Below, one piece after another: positions 3,474-55,791 of a stretch of DNA of 64,000 bases. The DNA lies in the NCBI RefSeq assembly GCF_003334815.1, contig NZ_QOWO01000002.1. The stretch is one strand, 5' to 3'. The notes beneath the pieces are model-generated. The model searched no databases. It worked only from the letters and a program-made list of their open reading frames with translations, and was not told where the DNA came from. The DNA comes from Escherichia coli. Lineage in GTDB: Bacteria > Pseudomonadota > Gammaproteobacteria > Enterobacterales > Enterobacteriaceae. Position 1 is the first letter of the stretch. Each line of letters begins with the position of its first letter. A program made the position numbers and the translations under genes.

Positions 3474-5066
3474 GTGTTAGTTTCCAGTAACGTCACCATG
3501 CAGTTCGGCAGTAAGCCGTTGTTTGAAAACATTTCCGTCAAATTTGGCGGCGGCAACCGTTACGGCCTGATTGGCGCGAACGGTAGTGGTAAATCCACCT
3601 TTATGAAGATCCTCGGCGGCGACCTTGAGCCGACGCTGGGTAACGTTTCCCTCGATCCCAACGAGCGCATTGGTAAACTGCGTCAGGATCAGTTTGCCTT
3701 TGAAGAGTTCACTGTGCTGGATACGGTGATCATGGGGCATAAAGAGTTGTGGGAAGTGAAGCAGGAGCGCGACCGCATCTATGCTTTGCCGGAAATGAGT
3801 GAAGAAGACGGCTATAAAGTGGCCGATCTGGAAGTTAAATACGGCGAAATGGACGGTTACTCTGCGGAAGCTCGCGCCGGTGAACTGTTGCTTGGCGTGG
3901 GAATTCCAGTGGAACAGCACTACGGCCCGATGAGTGAAGTTGCTCCTGGCTGGAAGCTGCGTGTGCTTCTGGCGCAGGCGCTGTTTGCTGATCCGGATAT
4001 TCTCCTGCTCGACGAACCGACCAACAACCTCGACATCGACACCATTCGCTGGCTGGAACAGGTGCTGAACGAGCGTGACAGCACCATGATCATCATCTCG
4101 CACGACCGTCACTTCCTTAACATGGTCTGTACCCACATGGCGGATCTGGATTACGGCGAGCTGCGCGTTTATCCGGGTAACTACGATGAGTACATGACGG
4201 CGGCGACCCAGGCGCGTGAACGTCTGCTGGCCGATAACGCCAAGAAGAAAGCGCAGATTGCTGAGTTGCAATCTTTCGTTAGCCGCTTTAGCGCCAACGC
4301 CTCGAAATCTCGCCAGGCAACTTCGCGCGCGCGCCAGATTGATAAAATCAAACTGGAAGAGGTGAAAGCCTCCAGCCGTCAGAACCCGTTCATCCGTTTT
4401 GAACAGGATAAGAAACTGTTCCGTAACGCGCTGGAAGTGGAAGGTCTGACCAAAGGGTTTGATAACGGTCCGCTGTTTAAAAATCTCAACCTGCTGCTGG
4501 AAGTGGGTGAAAAACTGGCGGTACTGGGTACCAACGGCGTCGGTAAATCAACGCTGCTGAAAACGCTGGTGGGCGATCTGCAACCGGACAGCGGCACCGT
4601 AAAATGGTCTGAGAACGCGCGCATTGGTTACTATGCTCAGGACCACGAATATGAGTTTGAAAATGATCTGACCGTGTTCGAATGGATGAGCCAGTGGAAG
4701 CAGGAAGGCGATGACGAGCAGGCGGTACGCAGTATTCTCGGTCGTTTGCTGTTCAGCCAGGACGACATCAAAAAGCCAGCTAAAGTGCTTTCCGGTGGGG
4801 AAAAAGGGCGGATGCTGTTTGGTAAGTTAATGATGCAGAAGCCGAACATTCTGATCATGGACGAACCGACCAACCACCTGGATATGGAATCCATTGAGTC
4901 GCTGAACATGGCACTGGAACTGTATCAGGGCACGCTGATCTTTGTTTCACACGACCGTGAGTTCGTAAGCTCCCTGGCGACCCGCATTCTGGAAATCACC
5001 CCGGAACGCGTGATCGACTTTAGCGGTAATTACGAAGATTACCTGCGTAGTAAAGGGATCGAGTAA
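3474..5066 (+). CDS. ybiT: ABC-F family ATPase YbiT (two ABC domains, no membrane domain), 530 aa
   Basis: Track ORF with GTG start; two Walker A motifs (GANGSGKST and GTNGVGKST) and two LSGG signature motifs. Confidence 0.93.
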
Positions 5067-5306: not shown

Positions 5307-6572
5307 TCAAACATCCATGCCCAACGCTCGCTTACCGTGAATGTTGAGGTCGGCAAGCGTAAAGCGTCCTTCCCAGTTTGTTTCATAGTCCTCGCGCGGG
5401 AAGTCGCCCGGCGATGCGCCTTTTTCCAGTGCGGCCTTCACCTTGTGCGCGTAGGCAAGATTTTTCTCGCACATCGGTGCCGCAGGAATGTACATCACGT
5501 TGCCCCAACCTTGTTGATTTTCAACGGGGGCAACGGAATGGATGACGTCGCAGTGCCACCAGACGGAGTCTCCGGCTTCGAGTTTTGGAATGCTGGTTAA
5601 CGCCTCAATCAACAGTGGATGCCATTGCTCTGATACCGGCAATACTCTTCCGGGCGCTACGCCGCACAGTTCATCCTCCGGCACATCATCAAGCAGCGGA
5701 CGTAACAGTACGTACGCCATAGCTTCAGGAATGGGCACGACGTGCAGCAGCCCCTGACCAGGCAGCATATCAGAGAGCGCTGTCCAGCCCTGGAATGTCC
5801 GAAACACGGAACATTTGGTGGTGTTGTCCACCGTGTACTCTTCAACTTCCGTACGATGTGCCGCATGCCAGGGATCATATTGCGCCAGATTGCCATTAAA
5901 GACGTTGGCGAAAACGCGCTGATACGCTGGAAGCAGCCAGCGTTCCAGTGCCCCGGAGTCGGTATGCGCTCCAAGACCTTTGGAGGTCGTTCCGGGCGGA
6001 CGGCGGCGGATACGGTCAGGGTAGATGACGCTCACATCCGGGTTAAACCATTGCTTTCCATCACTTTCAAATGTCCACAGACGATTGAGAAACGACTGCG
6101 CATTCGCCATTTCTTCACTCTGGCGGGCCTGCATTTGCGCCTGCGACCAGTAGATGGGGTAAATCTCGGGACGTGAAGCGCTGAGCGTCCCGAAGAAATT
6201 ATCGCCGGGGCCTTTGTAGACCTCGTCAAAGCGGTTGCGGTCCAGATAGTCCAGCATCGACTGATCCCAGCCTAGCGCTTGTTCGCGGGGGAAATGGCCT
6301 TTTATCACCGCACAACCGCGACGTTTAATCTGTTCGCGCTGCTCTGCAGTAACATGACCTGCTTTGATATCGGCATAAGACAGCACCGGCCAGACGGCAT
6401 CGCCCTGTGCTTTGAGTGCGTTGATTTCAGCCACTCGCGTGGCAATGTCATCGCTTAGCTGATTAAAGATCTGCTGGACGTCGCCAAGCTGCGCCCGCAG
6501 CGCGTGCTTCATCTGACGGATAGCTGCTTTGTGATCGGCAGGCAATGTGTCGCTGGTAAAAGTAGAAGCCAT
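5307..6572 (-). CDS. ybiU: DUF1479-family protein YbiU, 421 aa
   Basis: Track ORF 5307..6578 begins at a GTG; the ATG two codons in (MASTFTSD...) follows the SD gagagg and gives the 421-aa length I recall. Confidence 0.88.
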   Translation of the reverse strand: MASTFTSDTLPADHKAAIRQMKHALRAQLGDVQQIFNQLSDDIATRVAEINALKAQGDAVWPVLSYADIKAGHVTAEQREQIKRRGCAVIKGHFPREQALGWDQSMLDYLDRNRFDEVYKGPGDNFFGTLSASRPEIYPIYWSQAQMQARQSEEMANAQSFLNRLWTFESDGKQWFNPDVSVIYPDRIRRRPPGTTSKGLGAHTDSGALERWLLPAYQRVFANVFNGNLAQYDPWHAAHRTEVEEYTVDNTTKCSVFRTFQGWTALSDMLPGQGLLHVVPIPEAMAYVLLRPLLDDVPEDELCGVAPGRVLPVSEQWHPLLIEALTSIPKLEAGDSVWWHCDVIHSVAPVENQQGWGNVMYIPAAPMCEKNLAYAHKVKAALEKGASPGDFPREDYETNWEGRFTLADLNIHGKRALGMDV

Positions 6573-6681
6573 AACCACCTCTCATTAACTTTCATTCGAA
6601 ACCATTCTGATTTGCATGTGACAATATAAGTTATAAATAAGTTAATGCAAGTTTAATGATTTGATGTGATGTACAGGATGT

Positions 6682-6716
6682 AAAAAGAAGGGAAAACCGG
6701 AGCGCACGGCTCCGGT
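6682..6716 (-). terminator. rho-independent terminator downstream of ybiV
   Basis: Minus-strand hairpin accggagc-cgtgcg-ctccggt followed by tttcccttcttttt. Confidence 0.7.
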
Positions 6717-6723
6717 AGAGAGG

Positions 6724-7539
6724 TCAGCTGTTAAAAGGGGATGTGTTATCCAGCACCGCCTGAATCACATTCAGCGCGCCTTCATGATTATTATCATCGG
6801 TAGCGTAACGGGCGATTTGTTTAATGTTTTCCGCAGCATTGCCCATCGCAAAGGAATAACGCGCCATTTTCAGCATCTCCGCATCGTTACCGCTGTCGCC
6901 AATCGCTACCACATTTTGCGGTGACAGATCCCAGCGTTTCAGTAACCGCGAAATACCGTTTGCTTTATGTAGACCGGGAATAATCAGGTCGATAAAGCCA
7001 AAACCACTGGTAACGGGTTTCATAATGCCATCGAGCGCTACGTGCAGTTTGTCGATCACTAACGGGATTTGTTCATCCGGCAGGTTGAGCGAAAACTTGA
7101 ACAGTACGTCGTCAATCTCCTGATAATCTTTTACAGGTTTCAGGCGATGGTAGTGTTTTGCCATCAGTGCGACAAATGCTTCGGGGGCATTTTCGCTGAC
7201 ATATGCACTTTGCAGACCGCAGGCGACAAAATTGAGTTGCTTATCTTTTAGCAACTCGCCAATAACAATCCGCGATTCATGTCGGGTCAGTTCGCCGTGG
7301 AACAACTGCTTGCCATGTTCGTAAACCAGTGCGCCGTTTTCCGCGACAAAAGAGATCTCATCCTTTAGCTCAGGAAAGAATGAAATAAGCTGGTAATACT
7401 GATTACCGCTGGCAACAACGAACTTAATGCCGCGCTTTTTCAGTTCCTGATATTGCGCCATAAAACGTGGTTGGTTGTACGTTTTGGCGTCGTTAAGAAA
7501 AGTACCGTCCATGTCTGTGACGATAACTTTTACGCTCAT
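6724..7539 (-). CDS. ybiV: sugar phosphatase YbiV (HAD superfamily, Cof-type), 271 aa
   Basis: Track ORF; HAD motif I DMDGT near the N-terminus; paralogous to ybjI in this same window. Confidence 0.93.
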
Positions 7540-7684
7540 AGGTGTGCTCCTGGCTCGAAAATGAAACCGTAACAGTGTAATAACAATGTGACGCAGAGCA
7601 CAAATTATATTTCGAATGAAAGTAAGGATGAAATTGATGATGTGAATGATTTAGCCCGGCGACGACGCCGCCGGGCCGAGGAGA

Positions 7685-10117
7685 TTACAGCATATGTTCA
7701 GTACGGGCGATGATATCGTCCTGAGCGTCTGGAGAGAGCGCGGTGAAGAACGCGGAATAGCCCGCGACACGCACTACCAGATCGCGATACTGATCGGGAT
7801 GTTTTTTCGCATCCAGCAGCGTTTCGCGGGAAACGATGTTGTACTGAATATGCCAGCCTTTATGCACTTCAAAGAAGGTACGCAGCAGGATCATCAGTTT
7901 CTGCTTGTCAGATTCGTTCTCCAGCGTTGCCGGATTCAGTTTCTGGTTGAGCAACACGCCGCCGAGAATCGCTGCCGTAGGCAGTTTACCCACTGAGCCA
8001 ATGACCGCAGTAGGGCCAAGATGGTCAGTACCGGAGGCCGGGCTTGCGCCTTCTGCCAGCGGGGTGTGGGCTTTACGCCCGTCCGGTGTTGCCATAGTCT
8101 GCGCGCCAAACGGTACGTTAGCGGAGATTGATGACGTACCCGCGTAATAGTTGCCGCCAACCGGACCACGACCGTAGCGCGGATTATGGTACTGTTTCAG
8201 TTCGTCGATATAGGTCTGATAAGCGCGAGCCAGCAGCGTATCGACAGTATCATCGTCGTTGCCGTACTTCGGCGCACCGTTAATCAGCCGCTGACGCAGC
8301 TGCTCGTGAGTCAGGCCGTCGAAGTCATCTGCCAGTGCGGCAGCAAGCTGTTGCTGACCAATCGCACCTTGTTCAAACACCAGTTTCTTCACTGCCGCCA
8401 GGCTGTTGCCGAGGTTGGCAATGCCGACCTGCAGGCCAGAAACCCAGTCATATTTCGCGCCGCCTTGCTTGATACTTTTCGCTCGCTCAATACAGTCATC
8501 CACCAGCGCCGAGCAGAGAATATCGTGCACGTTCTCTTCCAGCATGGTGTCGACGACATATTCGATTTCGATTGATTTGCGGGTGTAGTAACGGATTTGC
8601 GTATCCCACGCGTCCATCACTTCATCGAAGTTGTTGAAGTTACCTGCCGACAACGCTTTTTCTTGTGGCAGGAACACTTTGCCGCTGGTGGCATCATGCC
8701 CGCCTTCCAGCGCCGCCAGCATCACGCGGGCGAAGTTGATAAAGCTCATGCCGGTACAGCGATAGCCCCATTTGCCACCGACGGCGGTTTCTATACAACC
8801 AATCGCTGCGTAGTCATAAGCGTCCTGCGGTTCAATACCGAGTTTAATAAATTCCGGGATCACGATTTCGTCGTTGTTGAACGCCGGCATCCCGAAGCCG
8901 CAACGGATCACCTGTACGCAGGCGTCGAGGAAATCGTTGCTCATTCCTGCATGGTAACGCACGCTGAGGTTAGGCTGAGTGGAACGCAGGCGACCGCAGG
9001 ATTCGAGGATCGCGTAAGAGAGTGGATTCACCGCGTCCATTGGTTGACCATCAACCAGATTTTGCCCGCCAATAGTGACGTTCTGATACAGCGGACTTCC
9101 CGCAGAGGCTTTTGAGTGTGAGCCGGAGCGGATCTTGTTCACTTCCAGCAGTTTCAGCCAGCAGCTATGCAGCATCTCGATGGCGTGTTCGCGATCCAGC
9201 GTCTGGTTGAGTTCAACGTCGCGGCGATAGTACGGGTAGAGATACTGGTCCATACGACCAAACGATACTGAGTGACCGTTAGATTCGATCTGCAAAATCA
9301 ACTGGATGAAGTAACACAGTTGCAGCGCCTGCCAGAAAGTCTGCGGCGGCTGGTGGGCGATAAGATCGCAGTTTTCTGCCATCGCCAGCAGTTCATCGCG
9401 ACGGCTTTCGCGGGTTTCGGTCGCGGCCATTTCACGCGCCAGGGCAGCGAAACGTTCAATGTGTTCACTGACTGCCACCAGCACGATATCAATCGCTTTC
9501 AGGAATTGCTCACCGTGTAAATCTTCCAGCACCGTCAGGTTGATGCGCGAGCGACGTTCCGCTACTTTCTCGCGCAGACCATCAAGCCCTTTTTCCAGCA
9601 GCAGCGGGAAATTCACCGCCAGGTGCGCATCGCCGGAGGTCATATTGCCTTCCGCTTTAATGATTCCGGTCGCCAGCAGACCTTTTTGCTCATCGGTAAA
9701 CATGCCGTAGCAGCGATCCTGTACGGTCTGACCGCGCCACCACGGGCACACTTCATGCAGAACGCGTTTGTTCTCTTCGCTCACCGCAAAGCCAGCACCG
9801 GGACGATCTGCCAGATCATCAATCTCTTTTTCGATCCACGAGACAGTATATTCCGGGAAGATCGGCGCGGCGCGAACTTCGCTTGCCTGGTTGCCAATGA
9901 TCAACTCATCGTGTTTGATCCAGATGGTGCGATTCGCCAGGTGATGCGCCAGTGCCAGCGCGCGACGTACCGGGATCGGCTTATCGAGATGTTGTTGATA
10001 CATCTCGGTATAGTGCTGCGCGCGCTCGGTACAGACTGGCGGTTTCACAATATGCACCAGCGCATTTTTGTGCGCTTTAATGCGGTCGCTGAGCGTGTCC
10101 AGTTTCAGTGTGGTCAT
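7685..10117 (-). CDS. ybiW: glycyl-radical enzyme YbiW (PflF, pyruvate formate-lyase homologue), 810 aa
   Basis: Track ORF; C-terminal glycyl-radical motif RVAGYSA present; length as recalled. Confidence 0.93.
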   Translation of the reverse strand: MTTLKLDTLSDRIKAHKNALVHIVKPPVCTERAQHYTEMYQQHLDKPIPVRRALALAHHLANRTIWIKHDELIIGNQASEVRAAPIFPEYTVSWIEKEIDDLADRPGAGFAVSEENKRVLHEVCPWWRGQTVQDRCYGMFTDEQKGLLATGIIKAEGNMTSGDAHLAVNFPLLLEKGLDGLREKVAERRSRINLTVLEDLHGEQFLKAIDIVLVAVSEHIERFAALAREMAATETRESRRDELLAMAENCDLIAHQPPQTFWQALQLCYFIQLILQIESNGHSVSFGRMDQYLYPYYRRDVELNQTLDREHAIEMLHSCWLKLLEVNKIRSGSHSKASAGSPLYQNVTIGGQNLVDGQPMDAVNPLSYAILESCGRLRSTQPNLSVRYHAGMSNDFLDACVQVIRCGFGMPAFNNDEIVIPEFIKLGIEPQDAYDYAAIGCIETAVGGKWGYRCTGMSFINFARVMLAALEGGHDATSGKVFLPQEKALSAGNFNNFDEVMDAWDTQIRYYTRKSIEIEYVVDTMLEENVHDILCSALVDDCIERAKSIKQGGAKYDWVSGLQVGIANLGNSLAAVKKLVFEQGAIGQQQLAAALADDFDGLTHEQLRQRLINGAPKYGNDDDTVDTLLARAYQTYIDELKQYHNPRYGRGPVGGNYYAGTSSISANVPFGAQTMATPDGRKAHTPLAEGASPASGTDHLGPTAVIGSVGKLPTAAILGGVLLNQKLNPATLENESDKQKLMILLRTFFEVHKGWHIQYNIVSRETLLDAKKHPDQYRDLVVRVAGYSAFFTALSPDAQDDIIARTEHML

Positions 10118-10122
10118 GGTTG

Positions 10123-11022
10123 TTATCCTCGTAAGGTCGCGGTTAACCCTTTCTGGCAGGCATACTGCTGGGCAAAGTCGAGCAGTTCTGGCGCATCAAG
10201 CGGTTTTTCCGGGGCGTCATAGGGCAGATTAAGTAAGTGATATTTGTTGATGCCCAGCGTGTGGTAGGGCAGAAAATGAATTTCGCCAACGTGCAGCTCG
10301 TCGGCGGCAAAATCGGTAATGGCTTTTACAGAGGTTTCGTCGGCATTAAAGCCCTGAATCAGCGGCACGCGGATAATGATTTTTTTGCCCGCTGCGGCGA
10401 GTTTTTTCAGGTTATCCAGCACTCTGGCGGCGTTACCGTCGGTCCACTGTTTAAACGGCGCGTCGGCAACGTGTTTTAAATCGGCAAGAAACAGATCGAT
10501 ATAGGGCAGAGAAGGGGCGATATATTTCCACGGCACATGCAGACAGGTTTCTACCGCAGTATGAATGCCTGCCTCGTGGCTGGCTTGCAGTAGCGCCATC
10601 GCCATTTCCGGCTGCATAAAGGGCTCACCACCCGAAAGCGTTAAACCGCCGCCGCTGCGATCGTAAAACGGTTTATCGCGCAGAACGGTCGTCATGATCT
10701 CCTCAACGCTTTTCACTTCACCACACACGGTTAATGCCTGTGTCGGACAGCAGTCGGTTAACGCCGTCAGATGCTCCGGGGTTAACTTTTCCCGATGAAT
10801 AAGCAAACCATTCAGCGCGCGCTCAATCACTTCCGGCGCGGCCTTAGCGCACAGCTCGCAGCCTTCCAGACACAGTCGTGCGTCATACAGCAGATCCTGC
10901 GTGCGGGCGCGGCTTTCCGGGTTCTGACACCAGCGGCAGCCCAGCGAACAGCCTTTAAGAAATACGACCGTGCGGATACCGGGGCCATCATGGGTCGAGT
11001 AGCGCTGAATATTGAAAATCAT
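10123..11022 (-). CDS. ybiY: glycyl-radical enzyme activase YbiY (PflE, radical SAM), 299 aa from second ATG
   Basis: Track ORF extends to 11049 (308 aa), but that ATG has no SD; the ATG at 11022 is preceded by gagagg; radical-SAM cysteine motif CSLGCRWC present; sits 5 bp upstream of ybiW. Confidence 0.85.
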
Positions 11023-11152
11023 AGTTGCCTCTCTATTTCGTTCAAGCATTAAAATACTTTCGAATGAAAGTTAGATTGATGTGCGTCAACTGTTCAGAGA
11101 GTTTTCCCGTGATAGTCTACATTCAGACAAAAAGTACATTTTGAGGATGGTT

Positions 11153-11815
11153 ATGGAACTGTATCTGGATACTTCAGACGTTGTTGCGGTGAAGGCGCTG
11201 TCACGTATTTTTCCGCTGGCGGGTGTGACCACTAACCCAAGCATTATCGCCGCGGGTAAAAAACCGCTGGATGTTGTGCTTCCGCAACTTCATGAAGCGA
11301 TGGGCGGTCAGGGGCGTCTGTTTGCCCAGGTAATGGCTACCACTGCCGAAGGGATGGTTAATGACGCGCTTAAGCTGCGTTCTATTATTGCGGATATCGT
11401 GGTGAAAGTTCCGGTGACCGCCGAGGGGCTGGCAGCTATTAAGATGTTAAAAGCGGAAGGGATTCCGACGCTGGGAACCGCGGTATATGGCGCAGCACAA
11501 GGGCTGCTGTCGGCGCTGGCAGGTGCGGAATATGTTGCGCCTTACGTTAATCGTATTGATGCTCAGGGCGGTAGCGGCATTCAGACTGTGACCGACTTAC
11601 ACCAGTTATTGAAAATGCATGCGCCGCAGGCGAAAGTGCTGGCAGCGAGTTTCAAAACCCCGCGTCAGGCGCTGGACTGCTTACTGGCAGGATGTGAATC
11701 AATTACTCTGCCACTGGATGTGGCACAACAGATGATTAGCTATCCGGCGGTTGATGCCGCTGTGGCGAAGTTTGAGCAGGACTGGCAGGGAGCGTTTGGC
11801 AGAACGTCGATTTAA
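11153..11815 (+). CDS. fsaA: fructose-6-phosphate aldolase 1 (FsaA), 220 aa
   Basis: In-frame ATG at 11153 gives [32 protein letters not shown], the FsaA N-terminus as recalled; the track ORF is a 24-codon upstream extension. Confidence 0.92.
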
Positions 11816-22845: not shown

Positions 22846-24174
22846 ATGTCCAGAATCAATAAGTTCGTACTTACAGTCAGTCTGCTGATTTTTATCATGA
22901 TTTCAGCAGTTGCCTGCGGGATCTACACTCAAATGGTAAAGGAACGGGTGTATAGCCTGAAACAGTCCGTTATTGATACTGCTTTTGCGGTGGCAAATAT
23001 TGCTGAATATCGGCGTAGCGTGGCAATTGATCTTATCAACACGCTAAATCCCACGGAGGAACAGCTGTTGGTTGGTTTGCGCACAGCTTACGCCGACTCG
23101 GTTTCCCCCTCTTATTTGTACGATGTCGGTCCTTATCTGATTTCCAGTGACGAATGTATTCAGGTAAAGGAGTTCGAGAAAAATTATTGTGCAGATATTA
23201 TGCAGGTTGTGAAGTATCGACATGTCAAAAATACAGGGTTTATCTCTTTTGACGGTAAAACCTTCGTCTATTACCTCTATCCGGTAACTCACAATCGTAG
23301 TCTGATATTTTTGCTTGGTCTGGAGCGTTTTTCTTTACTGTCAAAATCGCTGGCGATGGACAGCGAGAACCTGATGTTCTCTCTATTTAAGAACGGTAAA
23401 CCGGTGACCGGTGATGAATATAATGCTAAAAACGCCATCTTCACCGTTTCGGAAGCGATGGAGCACTTCGCCTATTTGCCGACCGGATTGTATGTATTTG
23501 CGTATAAAAAAGATGTTTATTTGCGGGTTTGTACATTGATTATTTTCTTTGCCGCATTGGTGGCAGTGATATCGGGTGCCAGTTGCCTCTATCTGGTACG
23601 CAGAGTGATTAATCGTGGTATTGTGGAGAAAGAAGCCATCATTAATAACCATTTTGAACGCGTACTGGATGGCGGGCTTTTCTTTTCGGCTGCCGATGTC
23701 AAAAAACTCTACAGTATGTATAACTCGGCGTTCCTGGACGACCTGACCAAAGCAATGGGCAGAAAATCCTTTGACGAAGATTTAAAAGCGCTGCCGGAAA
23801 AAGGCGGTTATTTGTGCCTGTTTGACGTCGATAAATTCAAAAACATTAACGACACCTTCGGTCATTTGCTGGGCGATGAAGTGTTGATGAAAGTGGTGAA
23901 AATCCTTAAATCACAGATCCCGGTAGATAAAGGTAAAGTCTACCGCTTCGGCGGTGACGAATTTGCGGTGATTTATACGGGTGGAACGCTGGAAGAGTTG
24001 CTATCGATTCTAAAAGAAATCGTTCATTTCCAGGTGGGAAGCATTAATTTAAGTACCAGTATCGGTGTAGCACATTCAAATGAATGTCCTACCGTCGAAC
24101 GCTTGAAAATGCTGGCGGATGAGCGGCTGTATAAGAGTAAGAAAAACGGCAGGGCACAGATTAGCTGGCAGTAA
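22846..24174 (+). CDS. dgcI: diguanylate cyclase DgcI (YliF), GGDEF-domain membrane protein, 442 aa
   Basis: Track ORF; intact GGDEF motif in RFGGDEFAV. Confidence 0.92.
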
Positions 24175-54360: not shown

Positions 54361-55791
54361 TTAATCTGTGCTTTGTTCTGCCAGTCTGGCGATTTGTTTT
54401 GCCATTCCGCGAAAAATAAACAGATGCGCGGGGATCATCAATAACCAGTAAAACAGCCCCGGCATACCGTGCGGATGCCAGAAAGCGCGGACATCGATAG
54501 TACGATAGTCGCCTTTATCTTCCAGGCTAAAACACAGTCGTCCCAGCCCCGGCGCTTTCATGCCAAATAACAACGTAAGTTGTTTTTCCGGTTCAACGAC
54601 AATCACTTTCCAGCTATCCACCGCATCGCCAGTCTGTAAATATTCGCGCTCCGGGCGGCCTTTCGCCAGCTTATGACCGATCGCGCGGTCCATCAACGCC
54701 CGTGTCTGCCACAAAATATTGCCAAAGAAATAACGCTCTTTACCGCCGATTTGGTTCACTACCTGCCATAAAGCAGCAAGGCTGGCGGACGTTTTAACGG
54801 TAAACCCCGCCTGTTTGGCAAAATAACCGTACTCCGGTCGCCAGCGGGCAAAGGCCTGAGCGTCGTAGCCCCAGTCGCTGGAGTTGACCAGTTTTTCCTC
54901 CTCTTTCAACGTGCTACGTACCGCGTCATCGAAAGCGATCAGCCGTTGTGGGATGAGTGCACGTAGCGCGGTATCATCCGCCAGCAGATCGTGTTTCAGC
55001 CCCTGAATCAACGCCCTGGCGGTGGTGGGCGGTACGGAAGTAATCACATTGAGAAACCACACCGAAATCCAGCGGGTGGGGAGGGGGATGGGGATCAACC
55101 AGCGGCGCTTACCGCTCACCGCCATAAAATGTTCAAACTGTTGCTGATAACTGAGCACCTCTGGTCCGGCGGCTTCGAAGATGCGGTGTTCGCTGGCCGG
55201 ATGATCTAACAACGCAACCAGATAGTGCAGCAAGTTTTCCAGCGCAATGGGCGTGGTGCGTGAACGAACCCAGCGCGGAGGCGTTAAGACTGGCAGGTTG
55301 TAGACCATATCGCGCATGACTTCGAACGCCGCGGAACCTGCGCCAACGATAATTCCGGCCCGCAGTTCGGTCACGGGTACATTCGCTTCACGCAGAATGT
55401 CCGCCGTAGCCTGACGAGCACGCAGATGATCCGACTGCTCATGTGGCGGGGCCTGCAACGAACTAAGAAAGATTAATTGCTTAACTGGTACTTCACGTAG
55501 CGCATCGCGGACGTTGAGAGCCACCTGGCGCTCCTGAGCGATAAAATCGCCGCCTTCGCCCATGCTGTGCACCAGAAAATAGACCGTATCGATATCCTGC
55601 AACAGGGCCGGTAGGTTATCCGGCCAGCTGAGATCGACTTTATGGCAACTGACGTTTGCCAGTTGCAGCTTTGCAAGCCTGTCGACATGACGTGCCGCCG
55701 CCAGGATCTGATGCCCTTGCTGGCTGAGTGTGCGCACCAGATGCTGACCAATGTAGCCACTGGCACCGAGAACTAAAATGCGTTGCGGCAC
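54361..55791 (-). CDS. ybjT: NAD(P)-binding Rossmann-domain protein YbjT, 476 aa, GTG start
   Basis: GTG at 55791 after SD gagagag gives (M)[17 protein letters not shown]; track ORF starts 25 codons upstream and would overlap ltaE. Confidence 0.88.

Follow-up and report, generated by a model that had tools for sequence, protein, structure and literature searches.

What does a 13-mer do that recurs at the promoters of one small gene cluster? In a 64,000-nucleotide stretch of an Escherichia coli genome (contig NZ_QOWO01000002.1 of assembly GCF_003334815.1; this whole stretch is hereafter the window), the sequence TTTCGAATGAAAG lies upstream of ybiU, of ybiV, and between the divergent ybiY-ybiW operon and fsaA. 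The original prediction proposed that these copies are a shared operator through which one regulator controls all of these genes. On the evidence below, we hold with high confidence that YciT has this 13-mer as its high-affinity operator. YciT is a DeoR-family repressor, in which Pfam recognizes an HTH_DeoR domain (E = 1.4e-15) and a DeoRC sugar-phosphate sensor domain (E = 7.7e-47). Both the regulator YciT and its target genes have already been published, and the finding is correct rather than new; a reader with the sequence alone had, in effect, recovered a genuine regulon operator. What we add are the base-pair positions of the three operators, the ybiV site, a half-site model of TTTC(G/A)(A/T), FNR as the likely source of an activator footprint at ybiY, and gene neighbourhood evidence for YciT as the cognate regulator.

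Occurrence, symmetry, and conservation of the 13-mer

An exact search of the window returned exactly three copies of TTTCGAATGAAAG, and these are site 1 (6589..6601, minus strand) upstream of ybiU and in the same orientation as that gene, site 2 (7610..7622, plus strand) in the ybiW-ybiV intergenic region upstream of ybiV, and site 3 (11058..11070, plus strand) in the divergent ybiY/fsaA control region. Against an expectation of 0.02 copies, none of 100 dinucleotide-preserving shuffles yielded three, and the recurrence is indeed beyond chance, as had been claimed. The bases directly after sites 1, 2, and 3 read TTA, TAA, and TTA, respectively, which agrees with the t(t/a)a noted earlier, while the sequences flanking the three copies are unrelated. 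When up to two mismatches were allowed, the window gave a single extra match (54555-54567), which lies in a long open reading frame and is at chance level. A match with three mismatches also falls inside a long open reading frame (24074-24086), and the frequency of such weak matches in the window is that of chance. The same three exact copies are present in MG1655, at 859078, 860099, and 863547 of NC_000913.3 (the offset from window positions being +852489).

With respect to the genes, whose limits follow the MG1655 annotation, site 1 is in the sense orientation with 16 nucleotides between it and the ATG (6572) of ybiU (5307..6572, minus strand), which encodes a DUF1479 protein. Site 2 is on the strand opposite to ybiV (6724..7539, minus strand), encoding a sugar phosphatase, with 70 nucleotides between it and the ATG at 7539. 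The operon of ybiY (10123-11022) and ybiW (7685-10117), both on the minus strand (7685..11022 in all), encodes a glycyl-radical activase and a glycyl-radical enzyme, and site 3 is located 35 nucleotides 5' of the annotated ybiY ATG (11022) and 82 nucleotides 5' of the ATG (11153) of fsaA (11153..11815, plus strand). Here, the placement of the motifs in promoter regions stands as originally described, though the distances given for ybiU (about 18 bp) and ybiV (about 75 bp) are replaced by 16 and 70 nucleotides.

The symmetric core of the element is a 12-bp pseudo-palindrome, TTTCnn-nnGAAA (that is, TTTC-N4-GAAA), which in the cluster takes the form TTTCGA-ATGAAA, the hyphen marking the axis. 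Of the dyad CTTTC-N4-GAAAG that had first been proposed, this inner 12-mer was upheld, but the outer C/G pair is complete at site 3 only. We describe the element as a 12-bp dyad with half-sites of TTTC(G/A)(A/T), an arrangement that would suit a dimer.

Phylogenetic footprinting, one of the checks suggested with the original prediction, was performed on 80 loci from 80 species, ranging from Escherichia to Yersinia and Serratia and anchored on YbiW (1.19 Mb in total). Except for two, all matches with no more than one mismatch are 5' of ybiY, ybiV, or ybiU at a distance of 160 bp or less, and the two exceptions are a contig end and a Salmonella diarizonae locus with an inverted ybiV. Upstream of ybiY, the site is exact in 57 of the 80 species with the gene adjacent, has one mismatch in 11, and is reduced to TTTC-N4-GAAA in four; the corresponding numbers are 39, six, and none for ybiU (46 species), and 17, 21, and nine for ybiV (48 species). 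Moreover, in 75 unique ybiY upstream sequences, the columns of site 3 are at least 85-95% conserved. The six Yersinia loci carry no motif and have neither fsaA nor yciT adjacent. At ybiV, the matches are split evenly between the two orientations, with 19 each way at the same position, and some genera have the perfectly palindromic form TTTCATATGAAA; because site 2 is found in both orientations at one position, we read the dyad on DNA and not on RNA.

These observations also bear on the possibility that the copies are chance matches, or what is left of a short repeat that was duplicated or mobile, with no regulatory role. Nothing beyond the shortness of the motif speaks for such an origin, whereas the outcome of the shuffles, the unrelated flanks, and above all the retention of the 13-mer across dozens of genera at orthologous sites, with a variable spacer around it, speak against it. 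The conservation refutes this explanation, to which we assign virtually no probability. Among the findings that were named in advance as fatal to the operator proposal are a motif that is common elsewhere and a motif that is not conserved in orthologous intergenic regions, and we encountered neither of these.

Evidence for YciT at the 13-mer

YciT (also DeoT, b1284) is a DeoR-family protein for which 49 sites were mapped by chromatin immunoprecipitation-exonuclease (ChIP-exo), with two of them in this cluster (Gao et al., 2021; PMC8464067). RNA sequencing of a yciT deletion gave log2 changes of +7.7 for ybiY, +7.0 for ybiU, +3.5 for ybiW, +2.2 for ybiV, and +1.8 for fsaA (PMC8464067, Dataset S6), from which Gao et al. 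concluded that all five genes are repressed by YciT; they also term its MEME motif palindromic. Independently of this, a Reg-Seq preprint (10.1101/2025.05.13.653802) reports that the ybiY promoter is anaerobically active, and that YciT is enriched on its DNA in DNA-affinity chromatography followed by mass spectrometry. The site so assigned shares bases with the polymerase footprint, and its offset from the ChIP-exo coordinate is about 100 bases (10.1101/2025.05.13.653802), a position that agrees with site 3. The idea of one regulator shared by ybiU, ybiV, ybiY-ybiW, and fsaA is thus borne out by the derepression of all five genes in the deletion strain, the ChIP-exo peaks, the pull-down, and the conservation of the motif.

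We then compared the 13-mer with the sequences under eight other strong YciT ChIP-exo peaks from MG1655 (about 13 kb in all), having converted the published NC_000913.2 coordinates to NC_000913.3. A relative of the motif is found inside the called interval at all eight. Six of these are 13-mers with no more than two mismatches, namely those at yfcV (TTCCGAATGAAAG), sixA (TTTCAGATGAAAG), rdcA and yjiT (both TTTCAAATGAAAA), pdeR (TTTCAAACGAAAG), and yjjI/deoC (TTTCAAATGAATG), while the yhgE peak has a version with three mismatches (TTCCGAACGAAAT) and the ompX peak has TTTCGGGTCGAAA, which conforms only to TTTC-N5-GAAA. Outside of the peaks, there was no match with up to two mismatches in the same 13 kb or so of MG1655 sequence. 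Since these eight peaks hold motif-like sites, the coordinate conversion can be taken as valid. All in all, the comparison shows that YciT-bound DNA carries TTTCrAAyGAAAg, and that the three copies in the cluster represent its consensus form. As for the genes beside these peaks, one site is in the MG1655 intergenic region that separates deoC from yjjI, a gene like those of glycyl-radical enzymes (positions 507-519 of extracted locus L088), and another is 5' of pdeR (positions 3881-3893 of locus L082, MG1655). Directly 5' of yciT itself, we found no motif with up to two mismatches, and a match with three (L082, position 1172) is within the yciT coding sequence.

Gene neighbourhood provides a further line of evidence. 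By tblastn, an orthologue of YciT with 58-81% identity was located within a few kilobases of fsaA-ybiY-ybiW in about 20 more distant genera (some 20 loci in all), and in most of these yciT is directly 3' of ybiW. Included among the linked loci are Buttiauxella, Cedecea, Franconibacter, Serratia, Pantoea, Rouxiella, and Brenneria, and the linked loci retain a TTTC-N4-GAAA site upstream of ybiY. In E. coli, yciT (at 1.34 Mb) and the cluster (at 0.86 Mb) are unlinked. Because of this neighbourhood in some 20 genera, we regard YciT as the regulator that belongs with the fsaA-ybiY-ybiW module and acts locally on it.

Several points weigh against the assignment. Cluster peaks #8 and #9 correspond to window positions 6743-6776 and 11161-11188, which puts them at distances of 154 bp from site 1 and 103 bp from site 3, with no motif-like sequence under either interval; nor does the published ChIP-exo set list a peak at site 2. 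For ybiY, the Reg-Seq preprint (10.1101/2025.05.13.653802) cites a RegulonDB entry in which YciT is an activator, contrary to what the expression data show. In addition, that YciT contacts the exact bases of the 13-mer is something we infer. A shift of about 100 bases was also remarked upon by the Reg-Seq authors (10.1101/2025.05.13.653802), and the displacement of peaks #8 and #9 may be an artefact of peak calling at very strong sites.

Alternatively, the motif could be the operator of another transcription factor, such as a DeoR-family paralogue, with YciT acting from the nearby ChIP-exo positions. The two intervals at 100-150 bp from perfect motifs, devoid of any motif-like sequence, speak for such an arrangement. 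Yet relatives of the motif lie under the eight other YciT peaks, the affinity pull-down puts YciT at the operator, some 100 bases away from where ChIP-exo has it, about 20 genera that retain the site have yciT next to the cluster, and derepression is highest at ybiY and ybiU, where the motif is at or just 3' of the core promoter. For these reasons, we consider a different factor to be very unlikely, and YciT most probably the protein that recognizes the 13-mer. The operators of Cra, KdgR, LacI-type regulators, NagC/Mlc, ArcA, and AgaR had been weighed first; none gave a fit, and they were dropped once the literature pointed to YciT.

Operator position and predicted promoter architecture

In the 75 unique ybiY upstream regions, the elements come in the order of FNR-type box, 5-bp spacer, operator CTTTCATTCGAAAG, and then TAATTTAAT. 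The FNR-type box (TTGATgtgcGTCAA, 11076..11089), which is 5 bp from operator 3, matches TTGAT-N4-ATCAA at nine of ten positions, and its arms (TTGAy-N4-rTCAA) are at least 95% conserved over the 75 species. Downstream of the operator is the hexamer TTTAAT (11048..11053, minus strand), conserved at 85-95% or more. The Salmonella counterpart of this promoter, pflE, shows a 150-fold hypoxic induction (Leschner et al., 2011; PMC3326293). There, a 100-bp fragment with the box is active and a 50-bp fragment from the operator onward is silent, which shows that the upstream stretch with the box is required, and a change of TTTAAT to TGTCAT abolishes expression (PMC3326293). Because of the effect of this mutation, we assign TTTAAT (11053..11048) as the -10 hexamer of the ybiY-ybiW promoter, and therefore place the box at about -41.5 and operator 3 at -17 to -29 of the predicted ybiY start.

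On the fsaA side, a putative extended -10 element, TGaTAGTCT (11110..11118, plus strand), is kept as TGnTAnnnT across genera in the alignment. With the centre of the FNR-type box at 11082.5, the distance would be about 41.5 bp to each of the predicted starts (about 11041 for ybiY and about 11124 for fsaA), and operator 3 would occupy positions from about -54 to -66 relative to the fsaA start. The box is probably the source of the activator footprint that the Reg-Seq preprint describes at the ybiY promoter without a named protein; our literature search found no FNR binding data for ybiY or pflE. Moreover, a possible auxiliary operator (11035..11047, minus strand) covers the predicted ybiY start, 22 bp from operator 3 as measured between the two centres. 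In other genera, the consensus of this element, cTTCATAcGAAA, agrees with 10 of the 13 operator positions, and the E. coli version is degenerate, with the CGAAA arm only. This element overlaps what has been called the 'tusp motif' of the Salmonella pflE promoter (PMC3326293).

For ybiU, the predicted core promoter (6623..6650, minus strand) consists of a -35 element TTGCAT (6650..6645), a 16-nucleotide spacer, and a -10 element TATATT (6628..6623). About 45 species share a conserved promoter block of AACTTGCATTAAC-N-TAAAGT/TATATT. Operator 1 would be at about +16 to +28 of the predicted start, directly 5' of the ribosome-binding site. Around this promoter, there is also an inverted repeat (6612-6617 and 6645-6650), TTGCAT...ATGCAA in E. 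coli and TTAACTTA-N12-TAAGTTAA in many other genera, and this may be the site for a second regulator.

Upstream of ybiV, a CRP-type box (TGTGAcgcagaGCACA, 7587..7602) is next to operator 2, with arms that are conserved and a spacer that varies in about 45 species. Operator 2 abuts both an AT-rich hexamer and this box (the associated positions being 7574-7579 and 7604-7609). The best conserved -10 element is TAGAAT in other species and TACACT (7579..7574) in E. coli. The box is centred at about -27.5 from the start that this -10 implies, and neither a class I nor a class II CRP geometry fits. The promoters that are conserved phylogenetically in these control regions were missed by a simple sigma-70 scan, since they have weak -35 elements or activator boxes in their place.

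From these positions, a mechanism can be proposed in which the three consensus copies would bring YciT to three promoters. At ybiY-ybiW, YciT bound between the FNR-type box and the -10 TTTAAT would exclude RNA polymerase, and possibly FNR, and so repress strongly, while for fsaA the same operator, at about -54 to -66 of a divergent promoter that shares the FNR box, would repress weakly. At ybiU, an operator between the promoter and the ribosome-binding site would act as a promoter-proximal block and give strong repression, and at ybiV, an operator just upstream of the CRP-type box would give a modest one. Derepression in the yciT deletion follows the position of the operator, being strong where it overlaps or directly succeeds the core promoter (ybiY and ybiU) and weak where it is upstream (fsaA and ybiV).

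The same arrangement bears on whether the motif might act at the RNA level, for instance as a shared 5'-leader element for an RNA-binding protein or a small RNA. The ybiU copy reads in the sense direction, ends 16 nucleotides before the start codon, and is probably transcribed, and the motif is likewise in the sense orientation for fsaA. It is, though, antisense to ybiV in E. coli and flips among species with its position kept, it lies upstream of the -10 of ybiY, where it would be untranscribed, and it is upstream of the predicted fsaA promoter. In addition, the palindromic half-sites together with the ChIP-exo data point to a DNA-binding dimer. An RNA element is accordingly an extremely unlikely explanation, and a DNA operator for YciT remains our reading of all three sites.

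Relation to known systems and to 1,5-anhydroglucitol catabolism

Classical DeoR-family systems, such as E. coli DeoR at deoCABD, GlpR, AgaR, and UlaR, combine a DeoR-type helix-turn-helix with a DeoRC domain and have operators spread over a catabolic cluster. In these systems, the operators overlap or flank core promoters, a global activator takes part in the control, and induction is by a phosphorylated sugar. By comparison, the operator TTTCGA-ATGAAA is specific to YciT, and E. coli yciT is unlinked to its main target cluster. The ybiY/fsaA region also resembles those class II promoters that are activated by FNR and have a repressor operator in the spacer; it has a TTGAT-N4-ATCAA box with a predicted centre near -41.5, induction under anaerobic or hypoxic conditions, and a specific repressor on top. 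It differs in that one box is apparently 41.5 bp from two divergent starts, with FNR binding and both starts being predictions from sequence.

The published YciT regulon (PMC8464067; 10.1101/2025.05.13.653802) has the same regulator, targets, repression, and palindromic motif as described here, but its cluster coordinates are 100-150 bp off the operators and there are two peaks for three sites. The accessible text of these studies makes no mention of the ybiV site, the position of the ybiU operator in the leader, the FNR-type box, or the fact that other genera carry yciT next to the cluster. Gao et al. tie YciT to osmotic stress (PMC8464067), whereas the later assignment of the cluster to 1,5-anhydroglucitol suggests a sugar-phosphate signal instead. 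In that assignment, YbiW reportedly converts 1,5-anhydroglucitol-6-phosphate to 1-deoxyfructose-6-phosphate in a strictly anaerobic reaction (PMC12441222, on the work of Ma et al., 2024).

The inducer of YciT is probably a phosphorylated intermediate of this pathway, for example 1,5-anhydroglucitol-6-phosphate, because this compound is catabolised by YbiW and FsaA and because sugar phosphates are the typical ligands of DeoR-family sensors. FsaA, for its part, reportedly cleaves the 1-deoxyfructose-6-phosphate made by YbiW. A wider proposal, which we advance tentatively and hold at somewhat less than an even likelihood, is that YciT is the dedicated sensor and repressor of an oxygen-sensitive 1,5-anhydroglucitol catabolism, released from DNA by 1,5-anhydroglucitol-6-phosphate or 1-deoxyfructose-6-phosphate, with one FNR dimer serving both divergent promoters. 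If true, ybiU, which has its own operator and a log2 derepression of 7.0, and ybiV would join the 1,5-anhydroglucitol pathway. With the module assigned to this sugar, it becomes possible to test directly what induces YciT and what YbiU and YbiV do.

Lastly, ybiU is dimorphic within E. coli (window 5307-6720), and the allele of the window is the one in 4219 of 5426 complete genomes. The GTDB species representative of E. coli has the other allele (positions 10517-11799 of locus L002), with 82% protein identity and the operator variant TTTCGAACGAAAG. As a protein, the YbiU of the window is nearer to that of Citrobacter (93%) than to the product of this other E. coli allele (82%).

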